In this document: one piece after another, positions 3,946-57,310 of the stretch
Position numbering within the stretch: the first letter of the stretch is position 1
Layout: every line of letters begins with the position of its first letter
DNA from: an uncultured Methylomirabilota bacterium
GTDB lineage: Bacteria > Methylomirabilota > Methylomirabilia > Methylomirabilales > 2-02-FULL-66-22
Assembly (NCBI GenBank): GCA_963845565.1
Contig: CAWJSJ010000002.1
Coordinates: forward strand, 1,248,001 to 1,312,000
Direction of reading: 5' to 3'
Length of the DNA stretch: 64,000 nt
Program-made: the position numbers and the translations under genes
Notes under the pieces: generated by a model
The model's database searches: none
Seen by the model: the letters and a program-made list of their open reading frames with translations, nothing else
Told to the model about the DNA's origin: nothing

Positions 3946-3990
3946 GACCGCGCGTGCTGATCTGCGGCCGAGCCGCGGTCCCGCCTCTTT

Positions 3991-4136
3991 CCTGTTGACA
4001 CCCAAGTCCAGGCCGTCGGATACTTCCCATCATCCTGGAGGCGCGGCCTCTCACCTGAAGAGCGCTTCCGGGGCTGACTTCGAGCGGCGGGCCGGGTCCC
4101 TGCCGGCGTTGCGGCGCGGATCGTCGCGCGACTCCC
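3991..4136 (+). mobile_element. IS91-like 3' end (oriIS-like) copy A with outward promoter; terminal motif degenerate
   Basis: TTGACA 3995, GATACT 4019 (18-nt spacer), GATCGTCGCGC 4119. Confidence 0.55.
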
Positions 4137-4173
4137 GGCGGACGGAACCAAATGAATAGCGGAAAGGTGTGTT

Positions 4174-4956
4174 ATGGCTCCTCGGCCTGACGTCGAAAAG
4201 CTTACCGACTACGTGGTCGCCTCCATCGAGGCCGGCAAGGCGGTCGAGAAGCCGTTTTTTCACCTTGAGTTCGATCGCATCTTTCCCGAGGACATCTATG
4301 CCTCGATCATCCGCCTGATGCCGGTTGCGGCTGACTACCGGCCGCTGCCCGGCCGTCGCGGCGCCAACCTGCTGCCCGATGGCTCATCCACCCGCGTCAA
4401 GATCGACCTGTTTCCGGAATACACCCGGCACCTTCAGGGCGAGAAGCGTGCGCTGTGGGACCTCGTCGGCCGTGCGCTCTGCTCCGCAGCGGTGCAGAAT
4501 GCCTTTGTCCGTCGACTCACGCCGGGGCTGGAGCGGCGCTTCGGCGCAGGCTGCGCCGACGTCGGCATGTACCCGATTCCGGTGCTCACACGCGACATTC
4601 CCGGCTACCGCATCACGCCGCATACCGATACGCACTGGAAGGGAATTACGGTGCAGTTCTATCTGCCGCCCGATGCCGCCAACACGAATATCGGCACGAT
4701 CTTCCACGACGTTCTGCCCGACGGCAGCATGCCCAAGGCGACGCAGATGAGGTTCGCGCCCAACTCGGGCTATGCCTTCGCGGTCGGCGACAACACCTGG
4801 CATTCGGCCGACCCGGTCGGCGGCCAAGTGAAGACGCGCGATTCAATCTTGCTGACCTATTTCGTCGATGCCGGCCTGCTGCGCTTCCTGCGCAACCGCG
4901 GCAAGCGCGTCGGCAATTTCGTGCTCAACGAGGTCAAGCACGTCGCGAGGCGGTGA
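4174..4956 (+). CDS. 2OG-Fe(II) oxygenase-like protein
   Basis: HTD...WHS facial triad and downstream RxS (TRDSILL). Confidence 0.7.
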   Translation: MAPRPDVEKLTDYVVASIEAGKAVEKPFFHLEFDRIFPEDIYASIIRLMPVAADYRPLPGRRGANLLPDGSSTRVKIDLFPEYTRHLQGEKRALWDLVGRALCSAAVQNAFVRRLTPGLERRFGAGCADVGMYPIPVLTRDIPGYRITPHTDTHWKGITVQFYLPPDAANTNIGTIFHDVLPDGSMPKATQMRFAPNSGYAFAVGDNTWHSADPVGGQVKTRDSILLTYFVDAGLLRFLRNRGKRVGNFVLNEVKHVARR

Positions 4957-5170
4957 GGCGGCGCTTCGAAACACGCAGGCGATTGGAGATGCGCCGCACC
5001 CGACTTGCTCGCGTTGCGCGCTTGCACGTCGACCTCTCCCCGCAAGCGATAATCCGGGACGGCATGCCTTCTGTCTCCTGGTCCCCTCGTGGTGCCCTCC
5101 GAGTCGTTACGCCTCGTCAGCCGCGTCCCGATGCGCCGGACACCCTCCACCATGGGTGACCCCAGTTTGG

Positions 5171-5330
5171 CCTTGACACCAGCCTCCTGCGCGCCTGATA
5201 CTCCCGCCCGGTGTCCGGGGGGACACCGGGCGGGGCGCGCGGAGGGCAGGGGTCGCGCGACTCCGACGGGCCCGCGGGGCGCCGACAGCCGCATCGTCCC
5301 GCGGCCCCAAAGGCGAACTCCGATCACTCA
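5171..5330 (+). mobile_element. IS91-like 3' end copy B with outward promoter
   Basis: TTGACA 5173, GATACT 5197, perfect 14-bp hairpin 5203-5234, terminal CCCCAAAGGCGAACTCCGATCAC. Confidence 0.65.
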
Positions 5331-5349
5331 TTCCCTTTCTCTTCATGCC

Positions 5350-5538
5350 ATGACACTTATCGGCATCAACCGCTCGATCATCCTGCCCGCGAGCGATTAC
5401 GAATTCCCTGAAACGACGCGCGATCTCGACGATGGTCCGAAGGAGTCCCGTCGGAAGGGTCACCGCAGGGCCCGCTCGAACTCGTTCGGTCTCGGCGGTC
5501 AGAGCACCTGTCTGTGGATAGGCGGATATGATGAGTAA
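5350..5538 (+). pseudogene. Degenerate C-terminal fragment of a beta-ketoacyl synthase
   Basis: ILPASDYEFPE...DLD...SNSFGLGGQSTCL matches the FabF C-terminus. Confidence 0.7.
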
Positions 5539-5568
5539 ACCATCGTCCCTTCGGTCGCTGCGGGGCGT

Positions 5569-6852
5569 GTGATGACCGACCCTGTCGTCATAACGAGCGC
5601 CGGAGTCGTCTGCTCCCTTGGCATCGGCCAGGACGCGGTGTGGGATGCGCTCATCTCAGGAAAGAGTGGCGTCCGCTCCATCGCGGGCTTCGATGCCCGA
5701 GGATTCCGGTGTGCTGCCGCCCAGGTGGTTGACCTGAATAAGGACGAGTCCGGCATCGACCCCCGTGATACCCGTATCATGCGGACCCACTCGTACATGC
5801 TCGGCAAGGCCACGCGCGACGCTTTTACCAATGCCGGGCTTCCCTCCCCGTCTCTCCCGTCGGAGGCAATCGGGTTTTTCGCTGGAATGGGTATGGTCGA
5901 TTATGAGGTCAACGACCTTCTTCCGGCAGTGCTCAAGTCGCTCAACCCCGACCGCAGCATCGACTACGACACCTTTTTTTCGGAGGGATTCCAGGAAATC
6001 CACCCCCTCTGGCCATTGTCGATGCTGAACAACGTCAGTTTCTGCCTGGTTGCGATCGGTCTCGATATTCAGGGCGACAATACGGTGTTCTCCCCCCATG
6101 CGGACTCGGGCGGCCTGAGCGTGAGAGAGGCAATGCTGTCGGTCCGCGAACGGCGATCAGGCATCGCCTTCGCCGCGGGAGTCAGCGAGACCATAAGCCC
6201 CCTCAGCCTCGCGCGCATGAGCCTCGCCGGACTGCTGGCGTCCGGCGACGGGAGCGAGGAGCAGCTTCCTCGGCCGTTCGATGCCGAGCGCACGGGAACC
6301 GTCCTGGGCGAGGGCTGCGGTGTCGTCGGCCTCGAACTCCTGTCGAGCGCGCGCGCCCGCGGTGCCGCGCCGCTGGCGGAACTCTCCGGCGTCGGCGCGG
6401 CCTGTCAACACCAGGACGGTGCGACGAGCCCGACGGCGACGGCAATCGCCGTAGCGATGGAGCAGGCCCTCCGGTCGGCCGGTGTGATCCCGCAGCAGAT
6501 CGACGCGGTCATCGCCCACGGAGATGGCTCACGCGAAGGGGACGCCCGTGAAATCGAGGCGCTCCAGATGGTGTTCTCCGGCGAGATCGGCCGACTTCCC
6601 GTGTTTTCATCCAAGGGATCGCTGGGGCATCTGCTGGCCGCTGCGCCTGTCGTGGACCTGATCACCGGGATCTCGATGTTGACGCACAACACCGTCCCGG
6701 CGACGCTGCATACCCGGCGCCCCGACGCCTCGGTGCGTTTCAATCTGGTGCTCGGCTCCGCATTGCATGCGCCTCTCCACAGGATCATGATCAACTGCCG
6801 GAGTTCGGAGGGCCAGGCAGTCTCGCTGATCATCGAGAAGAGCCTGCGGTGA
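5569..6852 (+). CDS. Ketosynthase-like protein lacking the catalytic Cys (chain-length-factor / FabF-mut type)
   Basis: KS fold motifs (RPFD, LGEG, IAHGDG, SSKGSLGH); PHADSG in place of TACAS. Confidence 0.85.
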   Translation: MMTDPVVITSAGVVCSLGIGQDAVWDALISGKSGVRSIAGFDARGFRCAAAQVVDLNKDESGIDPRDTRIMRTHSYMLGKATRDAFTNAGLPSPSLPSEAIGFFAGMGMVDYEVNDLLPAVLKSLNPDRSIDYDTFFSEGFQEIHPLWPLSMLNNVSFCLVAIGLDIQGDNTVFSPHADSGGLSVREAMLSVRERRSGIAFAAGVSETISPLSLARMSLAGLLASGDGSEEQLPRPFDAERTGTVLGEGCGVVGLELLSSARARGAAPLAELSGVGAACQHQDGATSPTATAIAVAMEQALRSAGVIPQQIDAVIAHGDGSREGDAREIEALQMVFSGEIGRLPVFSSKGSLGHLLAAAPVVDLITGISMLTHNTVPATLHTRRPDASVRFNLVLGSALHAPLHRIMINCRSSEGQAVSLIIEKSLR

Positions 6853-6859
6853 GAATGCC

Positions 6860-7309
6860 ATGAGATTCCTGCTCTTCGATTCAGTCGCGCAGATCACGAA
6901 GGGAAAATCGATCGTCGGTGTCAAGTGTTTTTCCCTGACCGAGGAGTTCCTCAACCGGCATTTCGCACAAACTCCCTCCGTGCCCGGTCCGCTCCTCATC
7001 GAGGCGATGGCGCAGCTCGTCGGGTGGCTGATCATCTACTCCTACGACTTCCGGCTTTCCACTTTCCTTGCACTCGTCGAGGATGTGCGCATCACTCCCC
7101 GGCTGCGTCCCGGTTTCAGCGCCGAGATCCACGGCGAGCTGATCTCTACTTCGAAACGCGATTCGCTCGGAAGGGCGCGCATGGTCTCTGCCGGCAGGGA
7201 GATCGCCTCCGTGGGCCGGATCATCTATGGCCACAGCGACCGGGTCGACCCCGAGGAGCTTGCGAGGCGATTCGCCTATTACAGCGGAATGAGGACTGAC
7301 CAGCAATGA
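6860..7309 (+). CDS. FabZ-like hotdog dehydratase
   Basis: MRFLLFD...HF...PGPLLIEAMAQ. Confidence 0.85.
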   Translation: MRFLLFDSVAQITKGKSIVGVKCFSLTEEFLNRHFAQTPSVPGPLLIEAMAQLVGWLIIYSYDFRLSTFLALVEDVRITPRLRPGFSAEIHGELISTSKRDSLGRARMVSAGREIASVGRIIYGHSDRVDPEELARRFAYYSGMRTDQQ

Positions 7310-8595
7310 ACCGGCGGAAGGTCGTCATCACCGGCCTCGGTCTTGCCACCTGCCTTGGACTCTCGGTCAACGGGAACTGGCGACGCCTGATGAACGGCGA
7401 ATCAGGCATCCGAAGGCTCTCGCATCCTGCTACCGACAGCTCTCTGATCCGCGCTGCGGGTGCGCTCCGTGGCGAGGACTGGCGGACGATCGAAGAGACG
7501 TTTCGGGACGACGCCGCTGCCGGCGAAGAGCGCATGACCCTCCTTGCGCTCTGGGCGGCGCAGGAGGCGCACCAGGATGCCGCCTTGTCCGACGGCACGA
7601 TCGAGCATGGCCGGGCCGGCGTGGCCCTGGCCTCGGAAATCGGCGTCAGCCGCCTGGAGGATGTCGGTCGCTGGGTTGACCCAGACCGCACATTCAACCT
7701 GCTGCGCTTCAGCAGGGAACTGTCAGCCGTGCATCCGGAATCCCTCATGCGGCACGTGTCGCATCGCCCTGCGTCGCTGATTGCAACGAAGTATCGTTTC
7801 TCAGGCATGAACGCGACGGTGACCGCCGCCTGCGCGTCCGCGAACCAGGCGATCGGCATCGGGTACCGTGCGATCCAGCGCGGCGATGCGGACATCATGG
7901 CGGTCGGCGGCACAGCGACGATGATGAATCCCCTCGGGCTGGTCTTCTTCCTCCTGGTCACGGCGGCCTCGACGTCCCGAGACGAACCTGCCGCCATCTG
8001 CCGCCCTTTCGACCGGAAGCGATCGGGTCTGGTCATGGCGGAAGGTGCTGCGGTCGTGATGCTCGAAGAGGAGTCGCATGCCCTGAGGCGCAACGCGAAG
8101 GTCTATGCCGAGGTGGCCGGATACGGCGCGTCGCTCGACGCCTACCGGCTGACCCGGCCGCATCCCGACGGACGGGGGGCCGCGCAGTCCATGATCGCCG
8201 CCCTCCGCGACGCAGGCCTCGGCATCGACGCGATCGATTACATCAACGCCCATGGGACCAGCACGAAGCTGAACGACGTCGTCGAAACGCTCGCGATCAA
8301 GAACGTTTTCGGCGAACGCGCATACCAGATCCCGGTCAGCTCGAGCAAGTCCATGATCGGCCACACGCTCGCGGCGTCCGGCGCTCCCGAGTTCGTGTAT
8401 ACCATCCTGAGCGTTCAGCGCGACGAGATCCACCCGACGATCAATCTCAGCCAGCCGGATCAGAAGTGCGACCTCGATTACGTGCCGAACGTCGGCAGGC
8501 GGCACATCGTGAACGCAGCCCTGACCAATTCATTCGGATTCGGCGGCCAGAACGCGACGATCATCGTGAAGAAATACCGGAAGGAGGACGCATGA
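7306..8595 (+). CDS. fabF: Beta-ketoacyl-ACP synthase II-like (FabF family), catalytic triad intact
   Basis: TAACAS, INAHGTST, KSMIGHT, NSFGFGGQN. Confidence 0.9.
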   Translation: MNRRKVVITGLGLATCLGLSVNGNWRRLMNGESGIRRLSHPATDSSLIRAAGALRGEDWRTIEETFRDDAAAGEERMTLLALWAAQEAHQDAALSDGTIEHGRAGVALASEIGVSRLEDVGRWVDPDRTFNLLRFSRELSAVHPESLMRHVSHRPASLIATKYRFSGMNATVTAACASANQAIGIGYRAIQRGDADIMAVGGTATMMNPLGLVFFLLVTAASTSRDEPAAICRPFDRKRSGLVMAEGAAVVMLEEESHALRRNAKVYAEVAGYGASLDAYRLTRPHPDGRGAAQSMIAALRDAGLGIDAIDYINAHGTSTKLNDVVETLAIKNVFGERAYQIPVSSSKSMIGHTLAASGAPEFVYTILSVQRDEIHPTINLSQPDQKCDLDYVPNVGRRHIVNAALTNSFGFGGQNATIIVKKYRKEDA

Positions 8596-9344
8596 AACTG
8601 GACCTGACCGGGAAGACCGCCCTCGTGACCGGGGGGTCGCGCGGCATCGGGCGGGAGACCGGCATTTTCCTGGCGCAGGCCGGAGCGCGGGTGATCATCA
8701 ACTTCCACCGATCGCGCGACGAAGCCGTCAAGATTCAGGAGGAGATTATCGCCGCCGGCGGTGCAGCCGAGATCGTCCAGGCGGATATCGGGGACCCCCA
8801 GGGAGTCGAGGCGCTCTTCGGTTACGTCAGGAAGGTCTGCAAGCGGCTCGACATCCTCGTAAACAATGCCGGCGTCATCAAGGACAACCTGTTGCTGAGC
8901 ATGGGACTCCCTGATTGGGAAAAGGTTCTCGGCCTCAACCTCCGGGGGGCGTTCCTCTGCACCAAGTTCGCCGCTGAGATGATGTTGCCGAACCATGCGG
9001 GGAAGATCATCAACATCTCGTCTGTGAGCGCGATCAAGGGCGGACGCGGACAGGTCAATTACGCCGCAGCGAAGGGCGGACTCGTCTCGTTTACGCGGGC
9101 ATGCGCCGTGGAACTTGCCGGAAAGGGCATCCAGGTCAATGCGGTCCTCCCCGGCGTGATCGAGACAGAGATGACCGTGCGCGTGCGGAAGCGCGCAGGG
9201 GAGCTGCTGCTCAATGCAATCCCGATGAGAAGATTCGGCACTCCCGCGGATGTCGCCAATCTCGTGGTCTTCCTGGCTTCCGACAAGGCCGATTACATCA
9301 CCGGTCAGACGTTCGTGGTGGACGGCGGCCTAACCGCCGCATGA
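8592..9344 (+). CDS. fabG: 3-oxoacyl-ACP reductase (SDR)
   Basis: TGGSRGIG, NNAG, YAAAK; AGGAGG RBS and ATGA overlap with fabF. Confidence 0.9.
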   Translation: MKLDLTGKTALVTGGSRGIGRETGIFLAQAGARVIINFHRSRDEAVKIQEEIIAAGGAAEIVQADIGDPQGVEALFGYVRKVCKRLDILVNNAGVIKDNLLLSMGLPDWEKVLGLNLRGAFLCTKFAAEMMLPNHAGKIINISSVSAIKGGRGQVNYAAAKGGLVSFTRACAVELAGKGIQVNAVLPGVIETEMTVRVRKRAGELLLNAIPMRRFGTPADVANLVVFLASDKADYITGQTFVVDGGLTAA

Positions 9345-11849: not shown

Positions 11850-12187
11850 CGTAACCCCCTCTTAACGCCTAGGCATGATGACGGCGGCGCGAAGGAGTAT
11901 ACCATAGTGACCTCTCTCCGTCGTACGCTCCGTCTCTGCCGGCGTCAAAGTTCCCTCGAGCCCTTTCGCGAGCAGAAAAGAACCGCAACGCTACCTGGCC
12001 CAACACCTGCTTTGAGTTGCATCGCGGAGCCCCCTGAGCACGCCTCGCCTCCTTCGGTGCAGTGGGCAACCCAAAACGGAGATGCCGTCGCACGCCCTGG
12101 CTAGCGCTGGGGGGTGGGTGTGCCGTATGCTCAGAGCCCTCGCTTGGCACCCTCCGTGAATAGTTTGCTTCCACCACGGGGGCGGGG

Positions 12188-12430
12188 ATGGTCACCGGGG
12201 CGTACAAGCCGCGCAACCCCAAGGCATCAGCCCTCTACCAGTGCGTGCAGACGCATTTCGCCGCATTCGAGGCGAACTACGCCCGCGGTATCAGGCGCAG
12301 TACGGTTTCTATCGCCCAGTGATCAGCCGGTTCGTCGAGAGATTCCTCACCTGTGGTGATTTCACCAAGGGATTCGCGAGGTTCCGCTGCGACACCTGGC
12401 GCCGGCGCCAAAGAACGAATTCCTTTCACC
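12188..12430 (+). mobile_element. IS91-family transposase N-terminal (zinc-binding) fragment, frameshifted, fused directly to element terminus copy C
   Basis: MVTGAYKPRNPKASALYQCV...RYQAQYGFYRPVI...FLTCGDFTKGFARFRCDT, then GCGCCGGCGCCAAAGAACGAATTCCTTTCAC. Confidence 0.85.
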
Positions 12431-12556: not shown

Positions 12557-12857
12557 GAAGGGCGTACGCCGACAGCCACAGCCTGCAAGGAATTGTGGCT
12601 CTATTGGACATGAGGCGCTGAAAGCCACAGCCGGCCTCACCCGCCGTATTCAACAACAGGGTTCGCGAGTACTGCGGGAATGGCCACATCCCAATGCGCA
12701 ATGCCCAAGGCTGTTGCCACCGGGAAACCACAAGAGCGACAGAGCGTCAGGCGTCGCCAGTCGGTTTGGCCATTTGTACCTTGGCATTCGTCGTGCGTTC
12801 CAGGTGCTTCCCGGATCGTGCGTGAACAGTCCGAGCCAATTGCGTCCGAGCCACCTG

Positions 12858-13010
12858 GCCCTTGACATTGTGTTCCTAAGCGTCAGATACTCCCCCCAGC
12901 ACGTTGGGGACCGCCCGCAAGGCGCGGAACGGCCCTTAGTCAGGCTCCCGAAGCGGTGAATCGACCCCGCGTGGCGCCGGCACCCATTGGCAGCTTCGAT
13001 CACCGTTCAC
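12858..13010 (+). mobile_element. IS91-like 3' end copy G with outward promoter, upstream of the Usp gene
   Basis: TTGACA 12862, GATACT 12886 (18-nt spacer), GGCGCCGGCACCC...TTCGATCAC 13003. Confidence 0.6.
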
Positions 13011-13599: not shown

Positions 13600-14072
13600 C
13601 GGGTGGGCGCAGGACCCGGGCCAATCCACCGAAGTCTCGGGCGCTGCCGCAAAGCGTGCCTGGGCGCGCCTGATCACGCAGGTGCACGAAGTGGATCCCC
13701 TGGTCTGCCCGCGCTGCGCGGGGGCGATGTGCTCATCGCGTTCGTCGAACAACCCGACGTCATCGCGAAGATCCTGACCCCCTCGGGCTCTGGCCTGCGC
13801 GCAGGCATAGCCCACCCCTCGCCTTGCTCGCCGCGTAGAGGTAGTTCCTGCTGTTCGGCATCCTCCTCGCCGCGGGCGTTCGCTCCCCGTCGCCCCGGCT
13901 CCCTCCGTTCGCCCTTGACACCCGTCCCCGGTGCACCCGATACTCCCGCCCGGCGGCCAAGGATGCGCGCGCGAGTCGCGATTCGGCACCGCCGGCGAGC
14001 TCACGGGACGGCGAGAGCGCAATCCTCGCGCCGGCGCCAAAAGCGAATTCCTTTCACCAATATCCTATCACC
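13600..14072 (+). mobile_element. IS91-family transposase C-terminal remnant plus 3' end copy D
   Basis: WARLITQVHEVDPLVCPRCAGAM.LIAFVEQPDVIAKIL..LGLW (frameshifted); TTGACA 13915, GATACT 13939; CGCGCCGGCGCCAAAAGCGAATTCCTTTCAC 14057. Confidence 0.88.
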
Positions 14073-14211
14073 GTCCGTGATTTCCACGTCGAAGGCGTCG
14101 CCGCCTCCAAACCGGAAGCCGACCCGCCATTGATCGTTGATGCGGATGCTCCACTTCACCGCAAGTTCGGTCGGTTACTTTGACCGATACACTTCAAGCG
14201 AGGGAATTATC

Positions 14212-33474: not shown

Positions 33475-33538
33475 GCGCCTCTCCCGCACCTCCGACGAAA
33501 GGGAAGTGGTCAGCGGCTACCGGGACTCGGTGCGCCGG

Positions 33539-33595
33539 TTAGGAGCCGTTACGAAATAACTTGTCCATCTGTTGTCATTTCGTTACGGCTCCTTA
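33539..33595. mobile_element. Minimal MITE-like remnant with terminal inverted repeats
   Basis: AGGAGCCGTTACGAAATAAC / GTCATTTCGTTACGGCTCCT (18/20), flanked by a TTA direct repeat. Confidence 0.55.
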
Positions 33596-33640
33596 TGCCG
33601 TTCCCGAAATTCTCCGGTCAAGTCATTCTTTGACAACGGC

Positions 33641-34756
33641 TCATGCGCCGAGGAGATCCAGCGCTTTCACCAGAGCCTCGACGAAGAAATACTCGCCCCA
33701 CATCACCGACTCGTTGACGCCGAGCCCCTTCCGGATGTGGTAGGCGCCGCGCTTCAAGACCCCCTCCCAGCCGGGCGTGCTGCGGCCCAAATACTCGTCG
33801 CCGGTCAGCGTGTCAAGGATCTGCAGCGCCGTGTCGCGGTACAGCCGGGATTTGGCCCGGAGCGGCGTGAAGGACGCCAGATCCAACAGGCCCGAGGCGG
33901 CGATGGCCGCCGCGCTGCTCTCCGGCTGCCGGTGCGGACCCGTGGCGGCCTCGAAGTCGTTGGGCGGCACGCCGTGGAGCGGTGTGCTGTCAATGTAGTA
34001 GTCCGCGTTCAGTTCGGCCGTCTCCAGGAACCGGCGGTCGCGCGTGTACCGGTAGGCGGTTCCGAAGCCGTAGAGCGACCAGGCCAGTCCCCGGGCCCAG
34101 GAGGAGTCGCCGCGAAGTCCCTGGTGCGTACTCTCGCGCAGAAACTCCCCGGACTCCAGGTCGAAGATGCCCTCGTGGACCGTGGAGCCGTCCCCGCGCA
34201 CCAGGTATCGGCGCGTAGTCAGGCAGTGCTCCATGACGCGGTGTTGCAGATCGGCGTCCTGGGTCTCGCGGGCCGCATAGAACATGATCCCCACATTCAT
34301 CATGATGTCGATGAAGGTGGATTCGGGTCCGATGAAGGAGCTGAGGTATCGCCCCTTCTCCTTGAAGCGGAGGCCCATGGTCTTCCCCGCCTGGATCAAC
34401 ACCGCACGGAGAGTCGCGTCCCGGGTCAGGCGGTACCAGTGGTGGTAGGTGGACATGAAGACGAAGCCGAGGTCGTGCACCTCCCGATCGTGTTGTCGCG
34501 GCTCCAGCGGCCGGGAGTACCGCTCGGCCTGCTGGCGGAACCACGGGTCCCCGGTGCGGATGTGGATCAACCACATCATGCCGGGGAAGAAGCCGTCGCA
34601 CCAGTGCGTCCAGGCTTCGCCCTGATGCTTCCATTTCCCGTCCCGCGTGTACATCGGGTAGAAATCGGGGTATCGCTCGACGGTGTTTCGCACTTGGCGC
34701 CCGGCGAAGTCGAGCGCGTCCTTGAGCGTCGGAATCAGGACAGCCGTGTCGATCAT
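33641..34756 (-). CDS. Glycoside hydrolase family 88 (unsaturated glucuronyl hydrolase-like)
   Basis: [23 protein letters not shown]...SWARG.AW..YG, WGEYFF.EAL. Confidence 0.9.
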
Positions 34757-53815: not shown

Positions 53816-53904
53816 TGGATCCGACCGCCTTTCCATTCTTCGGAAAGTTGTTTTGGAACCTATTCCGGGATCCGTCTGGGTTACCCCAGAGCCGTCCCAC
53901 CTTT

Positions 53905-54086
53905 CCCCTTGACGCCTGCGTCCGGAGTGTCGGATAGTCTGCCCCAGCCTTGGCGCCCCCTTGGGGGGCGGGCGAGGCGCGGCGCCGGTGGCCCCCAGGG
54001 GTGGCGGCGCGGCCGCCGCCCGAATGGTCGCGCCGCCCCGAAAAGCCAATTCCTATCACCATCACCCCGATTCCTATCACCTCACC
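53905..54086 (+). mobile_element. IS91-like 3' end copy E with outward promoter
   Basis: TTGACG 53909, GATAGT 53933 (18-nt spacer); CGCGCCGCCCCGAAAAGCCAATTCCTATCAC 54059. Confidence 0.75.
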
Positions 54087-54502
54087 TTGATCGCATCAAC
54101 GTCCAGGCGGGACTCGCACTGGTGCTGCCGATGCTGCTGGTGGGGGCTGCTTTCGTCATTTATTGGCGTGGGACGAAGCGGGCGGGCGTCAGCAACGTCG
54201 TTCCCTATGCAGTGCTCCAGGGGTACTCGGTGGTAATTCTGCTGGTGATCGCGCTGCTGCAGTCGTCGCGGTACACGCGCGGCAACGATATCTACTGGGT
54301 GTTCGCGGCCTATGTGGTCGCCAAGCTCCTGGAACTGTTCGACAGGGAGATACTGGCGATCGGGCACCTCGTCGGCGGCCACGCGCTCAAACATCTCGCT
54401 GCTGCCGCGGCAGGCTTCTTGGTTTGTCGCATGTTGATGCTGCGGACGATGAAAGAACCGGAAGCGCGGCAAAGGTCGGCTGGCGCCCAGGAGAGCGCAT
54501 GA
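54087..54502 (+). pseudogene. 5'-truncated alkaline (phyto)ceramidase-like membrane protein
   Basis: PYAVLQ...SRYT...YVVAKLLELFD...GHALKHLAAA; no start codon, begins at the element end. Confidence 0.75.
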
Positions 54503-55746
54503 ACTTCCTCGGACAACCCCGGCTGGATCCTCTTCTGCTCGGCTCCCCGCTGCGTAGCACGCCGGTTGCTGTCGCGATAGCCGGTGGGCTGCTCGTTTTG
54601 CTTGCCACCGTCGCGGAGACGCTCCTCGCCTTTCTCGGGTCGCTGCGCGGCGATGTCGCCAATGTGTTCATCGGGGCGATCGCGCTGTCAACGCTGATGT
54701 CGGTGGTGCCGCTCGCGATACTGTGGTACCTCGACCGGCGCGAGCGAGAAACCCCTTGGCTGTTTGCGGCCGCGTTTCTGTGGGGAGCGGTCATGGCGAC
54801 GGGTCTCGCGCTGCCCATCAACAGCGCGATCCTGTCGAGCGTCGCGGAATGGGTGGCGCGTCACCCAGTCGTACTCGAGATCCTCGGCCCGGAGGCTCCG
54901 ACGCTCCTCGGCGCGCCGCTCGCGGGGCCGCTCGTGGAGGAGGTGACGAAGGGCGTCGGATTGCTCCTGCTGTTTTTCCTGCTGCGCGCCGAGTACGACA
55001 ACATGCGCGATGGAATCGTGTACGGCGCCCTCATCGGCCTCGGCTTCACCTGGTTCGAGGCGTCGCTCTACGTGGCGCAGGGGTATGCGGAGTTCGGCGT
55101 CCCGCCGTGGGGCGCGCAGCTTGGCTGGCGCTATGCGCTCTTCGGACTGGGCGGCCACACGATGTTCACCGCGATCCTTGGTGTTTCCCTGGGGCTCGCG
55201 GTGCAAACGCGGCGGCGCTGGCTGAAGCTGCTTGCTCCTGTCGTCGGGCTCGCGGCTGCGATCGGCGCGCATGCACTCAACAATGCGCTGCCGCTCTACT
55301 CTGCGATCCAGAGCGCCGCTGCGGGCGAGCCCCCTCCCGCGAACGAGGCCCCGCCCGACATCGGCTTTGTCGCAGCGTGGCTGCAAGGAAGCTTGATGGA
55401 GCTCACCCTGTTCCTGCCGTTCCTGGTCCTCATGGCCTTTGCGCTGTGGTGGAGCGGCGCCTGGGAGCGGCGCGTAATCCGCGACGAGCTTGCCGAAGAG
55501 GTAGGCCGGGCGGTGAGCCCGACCGAGTACGAGATGATCCTGCACGACGGGATGTTCCGCACACGGCGCATCGACCGGCTCAATTCCGCGCTCTCAGCGG
55601 CAATCGTGAATGCGCAAAACGAACTCGCCTTCCGCAAACGGCGCGCGCGCGACGAGGGCCGCAATCCGGAGGGCGACCGGCTGGTCGCCGCGTGGCGCGA
55701 GGAGATCCGGCTTCTGCGCGAGCTCGAGTGGGGCGCCGCTCAATAG
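54499..55746 (+). CDS. PrsW family glutamic-type intramembrane protease
   Basis: LDRRERE.PW, PLVEEVTK, DGIVYG, GF..FE, H..FT, HALNN. Confidence 0.9.
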   Translation: MNFLGQPRLDPLLLGSPLRSTPVAVAIAGGLLVLLATVAETLLAFLGSLRGDVANVFIGAIALSTLMSVVPLAILWYLDRRERETPWLFAAAFLWGAVMATGLALPINSAILSSVAEWVARHPVVLEILGPEAPTLLGAPLAGPLVEEVTKGVGLLLLFFLLRAEYDNMRDGIVYGALIGLGFTWFEASLYVAQGYAEFGVPPWGAQLGWRYALFGLGGHTMFTAILGVSLGLAVQTRRRWLKLLAPVVGLAAAIGAHALNNALPLYSAIQSAAAGEPPPANEAPPDIGFVAAWLQGSLMELTLFLPFLVLMAFALWWSGAWERRVIRDELAEEVGRAVSPTEYEMILHDGMFRTRRIDRLNSALSAAIVNAQNELAFRKRRARDEGRNPEGDRLVAAWREEIRLLRELEWGAAQ

Positions 55747-57194: not shown

Positions 57195-57310
57195 AGGACG
57201 ATACGCTCCGAGGGCCGCCCGATGTGGTCCCCACTGTAGAGGACAGCGCCGAAGGGGCGCTTGGCGGCTCGATCGTCGCGCCGCCTCCAAAAGCAAATTG
57301 ACCCATCACT
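57195..57310 (+). mobile_element. IS91-like 3' end copy F (degenerate -35)
   Basis: GATACG 57200; GATCGTCGCGCCGCCTCCAAAAGCAAATTGACCCATCAC 57309. Confidence 0.6.

Follow-up and report, generated by a model that had tools for sequence, protein, structure and literature searches.

An IS91-family oriIS end with an outward promoter, worn down in the genome of an uncultured Methylomirabilota bacterium

Segment 5159-5324 of the window (the whole stretch of DNA analysed, 64,000 nt) is, judged by its homology to an intact element, the decayed oriIS (right) end of an IS91-family rolling-circle insertion sequence. Very probably this worn-down end still offers an outward promoter, and the 120-nt interval between promoter and terminus would be the unstructured leader of a read-through mRNA. 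What is conserved in the end is an outward sigma-70 promoter together with the terminal 16 bp, two features of the DNA level. An earlier note on this DNA had placed the segment inside the end of an IS91-family element, and this assignment is borne out, the end being the oriIS end. The parts of the focal end and its downstream neighbourhood are as follows.

5159..5324, + strand: decayed oriIS (right) end, with neither attached transposase nor recognisable terIS (identity to the intact element L184; profile match)
5173..5178, + strand: -35 box TTGACA of the outward promoter (motif search)
5197..5202, + strand: -10 box GATACT after an 18-nt spacer (motif search); identical boxes stand upstream of a host tRNA-Gln
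5203..5234, no strand: perfect 14-bp inverted repeat, private to the focal copy, its left arm beginning ahead of the expected start site (folding and inverted-repeat tests)
5309..5324, + strand: oriIS terminal 16 bp, with four mismatches to the family consensus
5325..5328, + strand: target tetranucleotide CACT adjoining oriIS (CACC or CACT in transposase-linked ends)
5350..5538, + strand: C-terminal 62 codons of a ketoacyl-synthase, the front missing at the element end (34% identity to the C-terminus of the synthase at 7306, E 8e-9)
5572..9344, + strand: co-oriented operon of FabF-like, FabZ-like, FabF-like and FabG genes, probably read from the focal promoter

The preferred account runs through several steps. 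The transposase would nick at the terminus and move the element, sometimes together with neighbouring DNA, as is established for IS91 and ISCR. The elements would decay in this genome, leaving promoter-bearing ends behind, and the promoter would fire across spacer and terminus into the following gene, so that the interval of about 120 nt may simply be an unstructured 5' leader. Ends that point into a gene would be preferentially retained, a presumed cause for an orientation bias that is itself observed. The hairpin of the focal copy may be a private change, perhaps a quasi-palindrome perfected by template switching.

The end and its intact relatives

Across 5159-5327 the focal end shares 70.5% identity with that of the intact element L184 (E 6e-10), and it is this identity, together with the transposase fragments in the window, that marks the segment as a decayed oriIS end. 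The match of the focal end to the iterated profile has an E-value of 1.9e-24, with weaker homology reaching leftward to 5136. Intact relatives were sought by scanning metagenomes with the transposase C-terminus, and the best 80 of 219 loci were taken, 57 of them with at least 350 nt to inspect. Among these best 80 loci, 47 carry the end within 600 nt downstream of an IS91 transposase match; 30 of the 47 ends fit the promoter pattern, and 26 of these are distinct (hereafter the transposase-linked ends). The intact transposases of L184 and L198 pass the NCBIfam IS91 model NF033538 (161-163 bits, cut-off 125) as well as PF04986 and PF14319, and the transposases of the metagenomic loci score 157-163 bits against NF052416 (ISCR clade Ia), below its cut-off of 925.

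In the genome collection, the exact terminus occurs in 81 stretches from many phyla, and 14 of 86 ends have transposase similarity within 2.2 kb upstream. Of 20 same-genus genomes, 7 have a Y2_Tnp match, which in two of the genomes is directly followed by the same end. Within the genome studied here, an intact IS91 transposase was not found: Pfam gave no match, but the positive control also fell below cut-off, so the absence rests also on tblastn with intact relatives, which returned fragments only. Sister copies in the window have remnants of a transposase gene on their upstream side, and the focal copy has none.

Sequence comparison gives an intact element of about 1.8 kb, comprising a terIS leader, a single HUH transposase gene (about 425 codons), then some 130 nt, an outward sigma-70 promoter, a GC-rich spacer of 100-130 nt, the terminal 16 bp and a CACC or CACT target. 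The distance from terIS to the transposase start is about 150 nt and that from the transposase end to oriIS about 240-300 nt, flanks so short that they leave no room for a further gene. The left boundary of intact elements bears a TTTCGTG motif in 9 loci, unlike the right terminus; the two ends thus differ and lack terminal inverted repeats, and a palindrome in terIS is visible by eye. The fuller copies share the 16-bp terminus followed by CACC or CACT, and beside the oriIS of the 26 transposase-linked ends the target is CACC in 16, CACT in six and another tetranucleotide in four, a test that is only partly independent because the first two letters of the target form part of the search motif.

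Several further observations concern these relatives. In L184, L187, L198 and their relatives, an inverted repeat in the leader seems, by eye, to cover the ribosome-binding site of the transposase gene, and this repeat could shield the transposase from read-through transcription. A further CAC-type motif occurs within the next 20 nt in 23 of 39 ends, as against 8 of 39 further away, and seven ends repeat the terminal CTATCA (window positions 14055-14075 and 54057-54090; metagenome loci L183-L262); these extra target or terminal letters may be traces left by repeated insertion. In a Verrucomicrobiota assembly an oriIS tip of 35 nt, lacking the promoter, is seen repeatedly, in L117 (four copies spaced 139-480 nt apart) and in L119, L129 and L078, and resembles the boundaries of captured pieces.

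The window holds five exact matches to TTGACR-N18-GATAST, at 3995, 5173, 12862, 13915 and 53909, all on the + strand, as the earlier note had counted; the looser TTGACR-N17-19-GATAST has five matches as well, at the same places, and 100 shuffles gave none. Across the genome the pattern has 28 exact matches, and the iterated profile has 33 matches at E <= 0.01, 22 of them below 1e-12; this profile was seeded with promoter-bearing copies, and its weakest matches are promoter-only and could include native promoters. Scans of the 64-kb window for Rfam families and for tRNAs gave no match. The other ends and fragments in the window are listed below.

3984..4137, + strand: sister end that has lost its terminus (the profile match runs no further than 4137); a gene follows at 4174
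12044..12426, + strand: internally deleted mini-element with a terIS leader, about 70 transposase codons and a 26-nt oriIS tip
12855..13004, + strand: strongly decayed sister end, followed by a universal stress protein gene
13612..14058, + strand: sister end with the broken 3' part of a transposase gene attached (79.7% over 436 nt to L184, E 2.5e-122; tblastn E 4e-19)
53896..54060, + strand: sister end (profile and comparison with the metagenomic loci)
57248..57309, + strand: oriIS tip without promoter (profile match)

The mini-element at 12044-12426 carries the sole terIS found in the genome, as against some 22 strong oriIS ends: a terIS profile gave one real genome match, at window position 12044, and none fused to the focal copy. 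Between the first two ends of the window lies segment 4138-5046, with a gene (4174-4956) without Pfam or NCBIfam match and a repeat-like stretch; two RNA-run contigs, X5 and X7, carry this segment in other contexts, the junctions falling at 4138 and 5046, so that it resembles foreign DNA that has been captured. Relatives of the 3984-4137 end in RNA-run contigs either continue into a normal terminus or join other DNA there. Contigs of this kind from relatives of the 3995 copy span from upstream of the -35 box to past the terminus, but they carry no strand or start and may be DNA. Contigs from four RNA runs gave no coverage of 5047-5668, where the focal copy lies, which does not speak for silence there. 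Segments 33536-33641 and 55021-55643 match DNA that lies outside the end in transposase-bearing metagenome loci (L252, L191, L186).

The outward promoter and the genes it faces

The earlier note's claim of a promoter reading outward into the flanking DNA holds at the level of sequence, as a predicted sigma-70 promoter that points outward in most ends. In the focal copy it agrees with the sigma-70 consensus at 10 of 12 positions (four of six in the -10 box), and transcription would be expected to start near 5209-5210. Host tRNA genes carry the same promoter type, one of them with identical boxes and spacing. An independent sigma-70 scan placed an outward promoter in 26 of 41 distinct ends from transposase loci and an inward one in a single end, with 0.1 expected; in more distant ends the same scan found 23 outward and 13 inward among 74, with 9.7 expected, the outward promoters lying at other distances, 26-136 nt from the end. 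Mismatches in the 26 transposase-linked ends amount to 0.029 per base in the promoter boxes and 0.043 in the terminus, figures that overstate promoter conservation since the ends were picked with the promoter pattern. The focal copy itself has kept its boxes intact while 4 of its 16 terminal positions are mismatched.

Downstream genes are mostly read in the promoter's own direction. For 29 of 33 profile matches, and for 20 of the 22 strongest, the next called gene runs the same way (null 0.50-0.56, P <= 5e-4), and between genes of the same strand the copies point along them in 15 cases and against them in two; given that the genes were called with a crude codon model of our own and that the profile was seeded with promoters, this bias is supportive and not clean. 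In the case of the focal copy, the promoter most likely drives a fab-like operon, the first gene of which is truncated where the element ends. A Pfam search of that gene fragment alone (5350-5538) gave no match.

The genes at 5572-9344, which follow this truncated synthase, comprise two further ketoacyl-synthase genes, a dehydratase and a reductase, and look like a horizontally acquired fatty-acid or polyketide cluster; a search of 20 same-genus genomes at E 1e-60 gave no match to the first of them. Elsewhere in the genome, promoter-only matches stand upstream of host genes with the element spacer kept and the terminus missing (C2:1979004, C3:118333, C5:343461, C5:734982, C2:684244 and C2:1059407), and these are candidates for fully domesticated element promoters.

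Read-through into host genes would add another instance in which ends of the IS91 family lend promoters to adjacent genes, this time in an uncultured lineage, where some 20-30 of the leftover ends may act as promoter sources throughout a single chromosome. For annotation, such repeats would be marked as IS91 ends and not as regulatory RNAs; the analysis also maps an IS91 clade with a CACC/CACT target.

Read-through into host genes alone leaves the strong promoter conservation in transposase-bearing elements unexplained, which counts against the preferred account. One alternative, which we consider unlikely, is that the promoter's main use, and the reason for its conservation, lies in the element's own cycle, with the promoter either reading across the oriIS-terIS junction of a circle into the transposase gene or making an unstructured RNA that pairs with the bottom strand and primes or blocks the single-stranded intermediate. 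IS91 does form circles with such a junction, and only the bottom-strand single-stranded circle inserts, according to the accessible part of PMC13181058; the low mismatch rate of the boxes and the outward promoters retained at other distances in distant ends are also in keeping with this role. However, a search of 210 stretches downstream of ends gave no match to the terIS leader, as a circle or tandem junction would have done (the one 29-nt match was to a mis-picked query), the accessible parts of PMC13393415 and PMC13181058 give IS91 and ISCR transposases promoters of their own at terIS, and selection for the expression of neighbouring genes could account for the promoter conservation. A role in the element's own cycle requires no fixed RNA structure, and it adds to the read-through account more than it replaces it. 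If true, it would explain why the promoter is kept in intact elements of several phyla while the spacer drifts freely, and it would bear on how IS91 single-stranded circles are controlled and converted.

The interval between promoter and terminus

From conserved length and recurring hairpins in diverged interiors, the earlier note had proposed a structured small RNA or a folded single-strand origin between the -10 box and the terminus. The distances it gave (125, 112, 113 and 121 nt in four copies, counted from the -10 box up to the last letter of the terminal TCAC) are correct, but over 74 distinct ends the distance spans 43-154 nt, so length is not conserved. The interiors were said to have diverged almost completely; pairwise this stands, as the four window copies are 55-63% identical compared with 53-59% for shuffles, but profile and blastn searches still show homology, and the focal copy has relatives at 68-78% identity. 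The lengths cluster near 81, 105-111, 118-122 and 130 nt. A spacing by helical turns was considered and is not established, a period of 12 beating 10.5 once relatives are collapsed.

The perfect 14-bp hairpin at 5203-5234 is real, with a z-score of -2.7 as RNA and an equally long inverted repeat in none of 200 shuffles. It starts at the first base past the -10 box, so a transcript beginning 7 nt later keeps only 7 of its 14 pairs and has a z-score of -0.2. In the seven closest relatives, 48.7% of the corresponding cells pair, compared with 50.5% in shuffles. The set for comparison consisted of 48 promoter-plus-terminus copies from 94 candidate stretches of this genome and the genus, 46 of which have an interior of 70 nt or more. 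With the focal copy set aside, the longest perfect inverted repeat within the first 50 nt past the -10 box averages 4.9 bp in the remaining 45, with 4.9 bp expected, and the 7-bp hairpin at 53954 has a p of 0.2, so the recurrence of hairpins did not hold up. Folding of the 46 copies gave a mean z of 0.11 for the top strand as RNA and 0.19 for the bottom strand, the focal copy alone falling below -2, and DNA parameters gave similar values. Because many of the 46 are decayed, the folding test was repeated on the 26 transposase-linked ends, where the mean z was -0.06 and no end fell below -2.

Comparative tests of structure gave a similar picture. RNAalifold predicted no pairs for 31 copies, and for two subfamilies it returned weak structures that carry a covariation penalty and draw on bases preceding the start site. 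Our own covariation test, which takes the tree into account, was applied to alignments of 22, 12, 16, 26 and 64 (of 74) ends and yielded no significant pair in any of the five (none at E < 0.05; SCI 0-0.3), which is one half of what the earlier note had named in advance as refuting its proposal, the other half being the lack of a discrete transcript. The same code found 9-14 pairs, with an SCI of 1.1-1.2, in 12-36 tRNAs of like identity; the alignments were built by sequence only, and since tRNAs are easier to align than the ends studied here, the test could overlook a helix that is short or shifts its place. A terminator was sought at the focal end and none was found. Since the interval varies in length and shows neither excess folding (in RNA or DNA form, on top or bottom strand) nor a consensus structure, covariation or a terminator, neither form of the proposal was upheld. 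This leaves the fallback that the earlier note had itself allowed for, a read-through promoter at a DNA-level origin.

One variant of the origin idea holds that the promoter arm and a subterminal arm fold back on single-stranded DNA into a hairpin promoter, that is, a single-strand origin that would prime the second strand; we regard it as quite improbable. A spacer motif is loosely complementary to a subterminal motif, and in the 26 transposase-linked ends each end's own arms pair better than swapped arms by 0.8 kcal/mol (permutation p 0.02-0.03 as DNA), an effect that fades in 64 ends (p 0.06-0.13) and comes from eight tests on relatives that are not independent. Whole ends have a bottom-strand z below -2 in 4 of 26 cases, but the mean z is -0.28 and no covarying pair joins the arms. 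Imperfect subterminal palindromes in the oriIS of IS91 and IS801, described in the accessible part of bioRxiv 10.1101/2025.01.24.634351, would fit such a fold.

Two observations favour a structured small RNA encoded by the transposon, of the omega-RNA or bridge RNA kind: the promoter is conserved and its distance from the end varies within loose bounds (several lineages have a mode near 130 nt), and the focal copy folds well when the first base past the -10 box is taken as its start. Such an RNA is nevertheless highly improbable, given the weak fold from the expected start, the lack of hairpin conservation, RNAalifold pairs, covariation, Rfam match, terminator or constant length, and an intact element without space for a second, RNA-binding protein gene. 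No cognate RNA-guided protein (TnpB, IscB or IS110 recombinase) was found in the intact element, which has no room for one, and no description of an IS91-end RNA was found in the literature, searched by titles and the openings of abstracts with thin coverage of subscription papers.

Comparison with known systems

Insertion sequences of the IS200/IS605 group, with their omega-RNA, and of the IS110 group, with their bridge RNA, have a promoter-bearing non-coding end, as does the element described here. Unlike the omega-RNA and bridge RNA systems, this end has no conserved structure, covariation, fixed length or guide-like segment, and no RNA-guided protein accompanies it.

In the IS91 family, transposition starts at oriIS and often overruns terIS, a tetranucleotide serves as target, and the circle intermediates insert through their bottom single strand, according to the accessible parts of bioRxiv 10.1101/2025.01.24.634351 and PMC13181058. 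Like IS91, IS801 and IS1294, the present element has an HUH transposase with IS91 zinc-binding and Y2_Tnp domains, distinct terIS and oriIS, no terminal inverted repeats and a tetranucleotide beside oriIS. It differs from them in its target, which reads CACC/CACT on the top strand (GGTG/AGTG on the bottom strand) where theirs is CTTG/GTTC/GTCC, in having no space for orf121, and in an oriIS where weak arm complementarity only, and no conserved palindrome, was detected.

The closest parallel is ISCR1, whose 232-bp oriIS region holds two functional outward promoters, PCR1-1 and PCR1-2 (POUT), and 84% of whose neighbours are co-oriented, as set out in the accessible text of PMC6218425 and restated in PMC13393415; a read-through promoter at a DNA-level origin is already published for ISCR1 (PMC6218425). 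The present element differs from ISCR1 in having one predicted near-consensus promoter instead of two, in belonging to another transposase clade (163 bits against a cut-off of 925), in lacking a tie to class 1 integrons and in having left many decayed solo ends in an environmental chromosome. As in ISCR1, an outward sigma-70 promoter lies between the transposase stop and the oriIS terminus, in a region of about 230 bp, and downstream genes are mostly co-oriented, in a proportion here (29 of 33) comparable to the one given in the available ISCR1 text. The ISCR1 right end, in the part of PMC13023784 that is accessible, has TTCCTAT just ahead of its end, in common with the terminus described here. 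By these comparisons the element appears to work as ISCR1 does through POUT, and it is a member of the IS91 family distinct from ISCR1.
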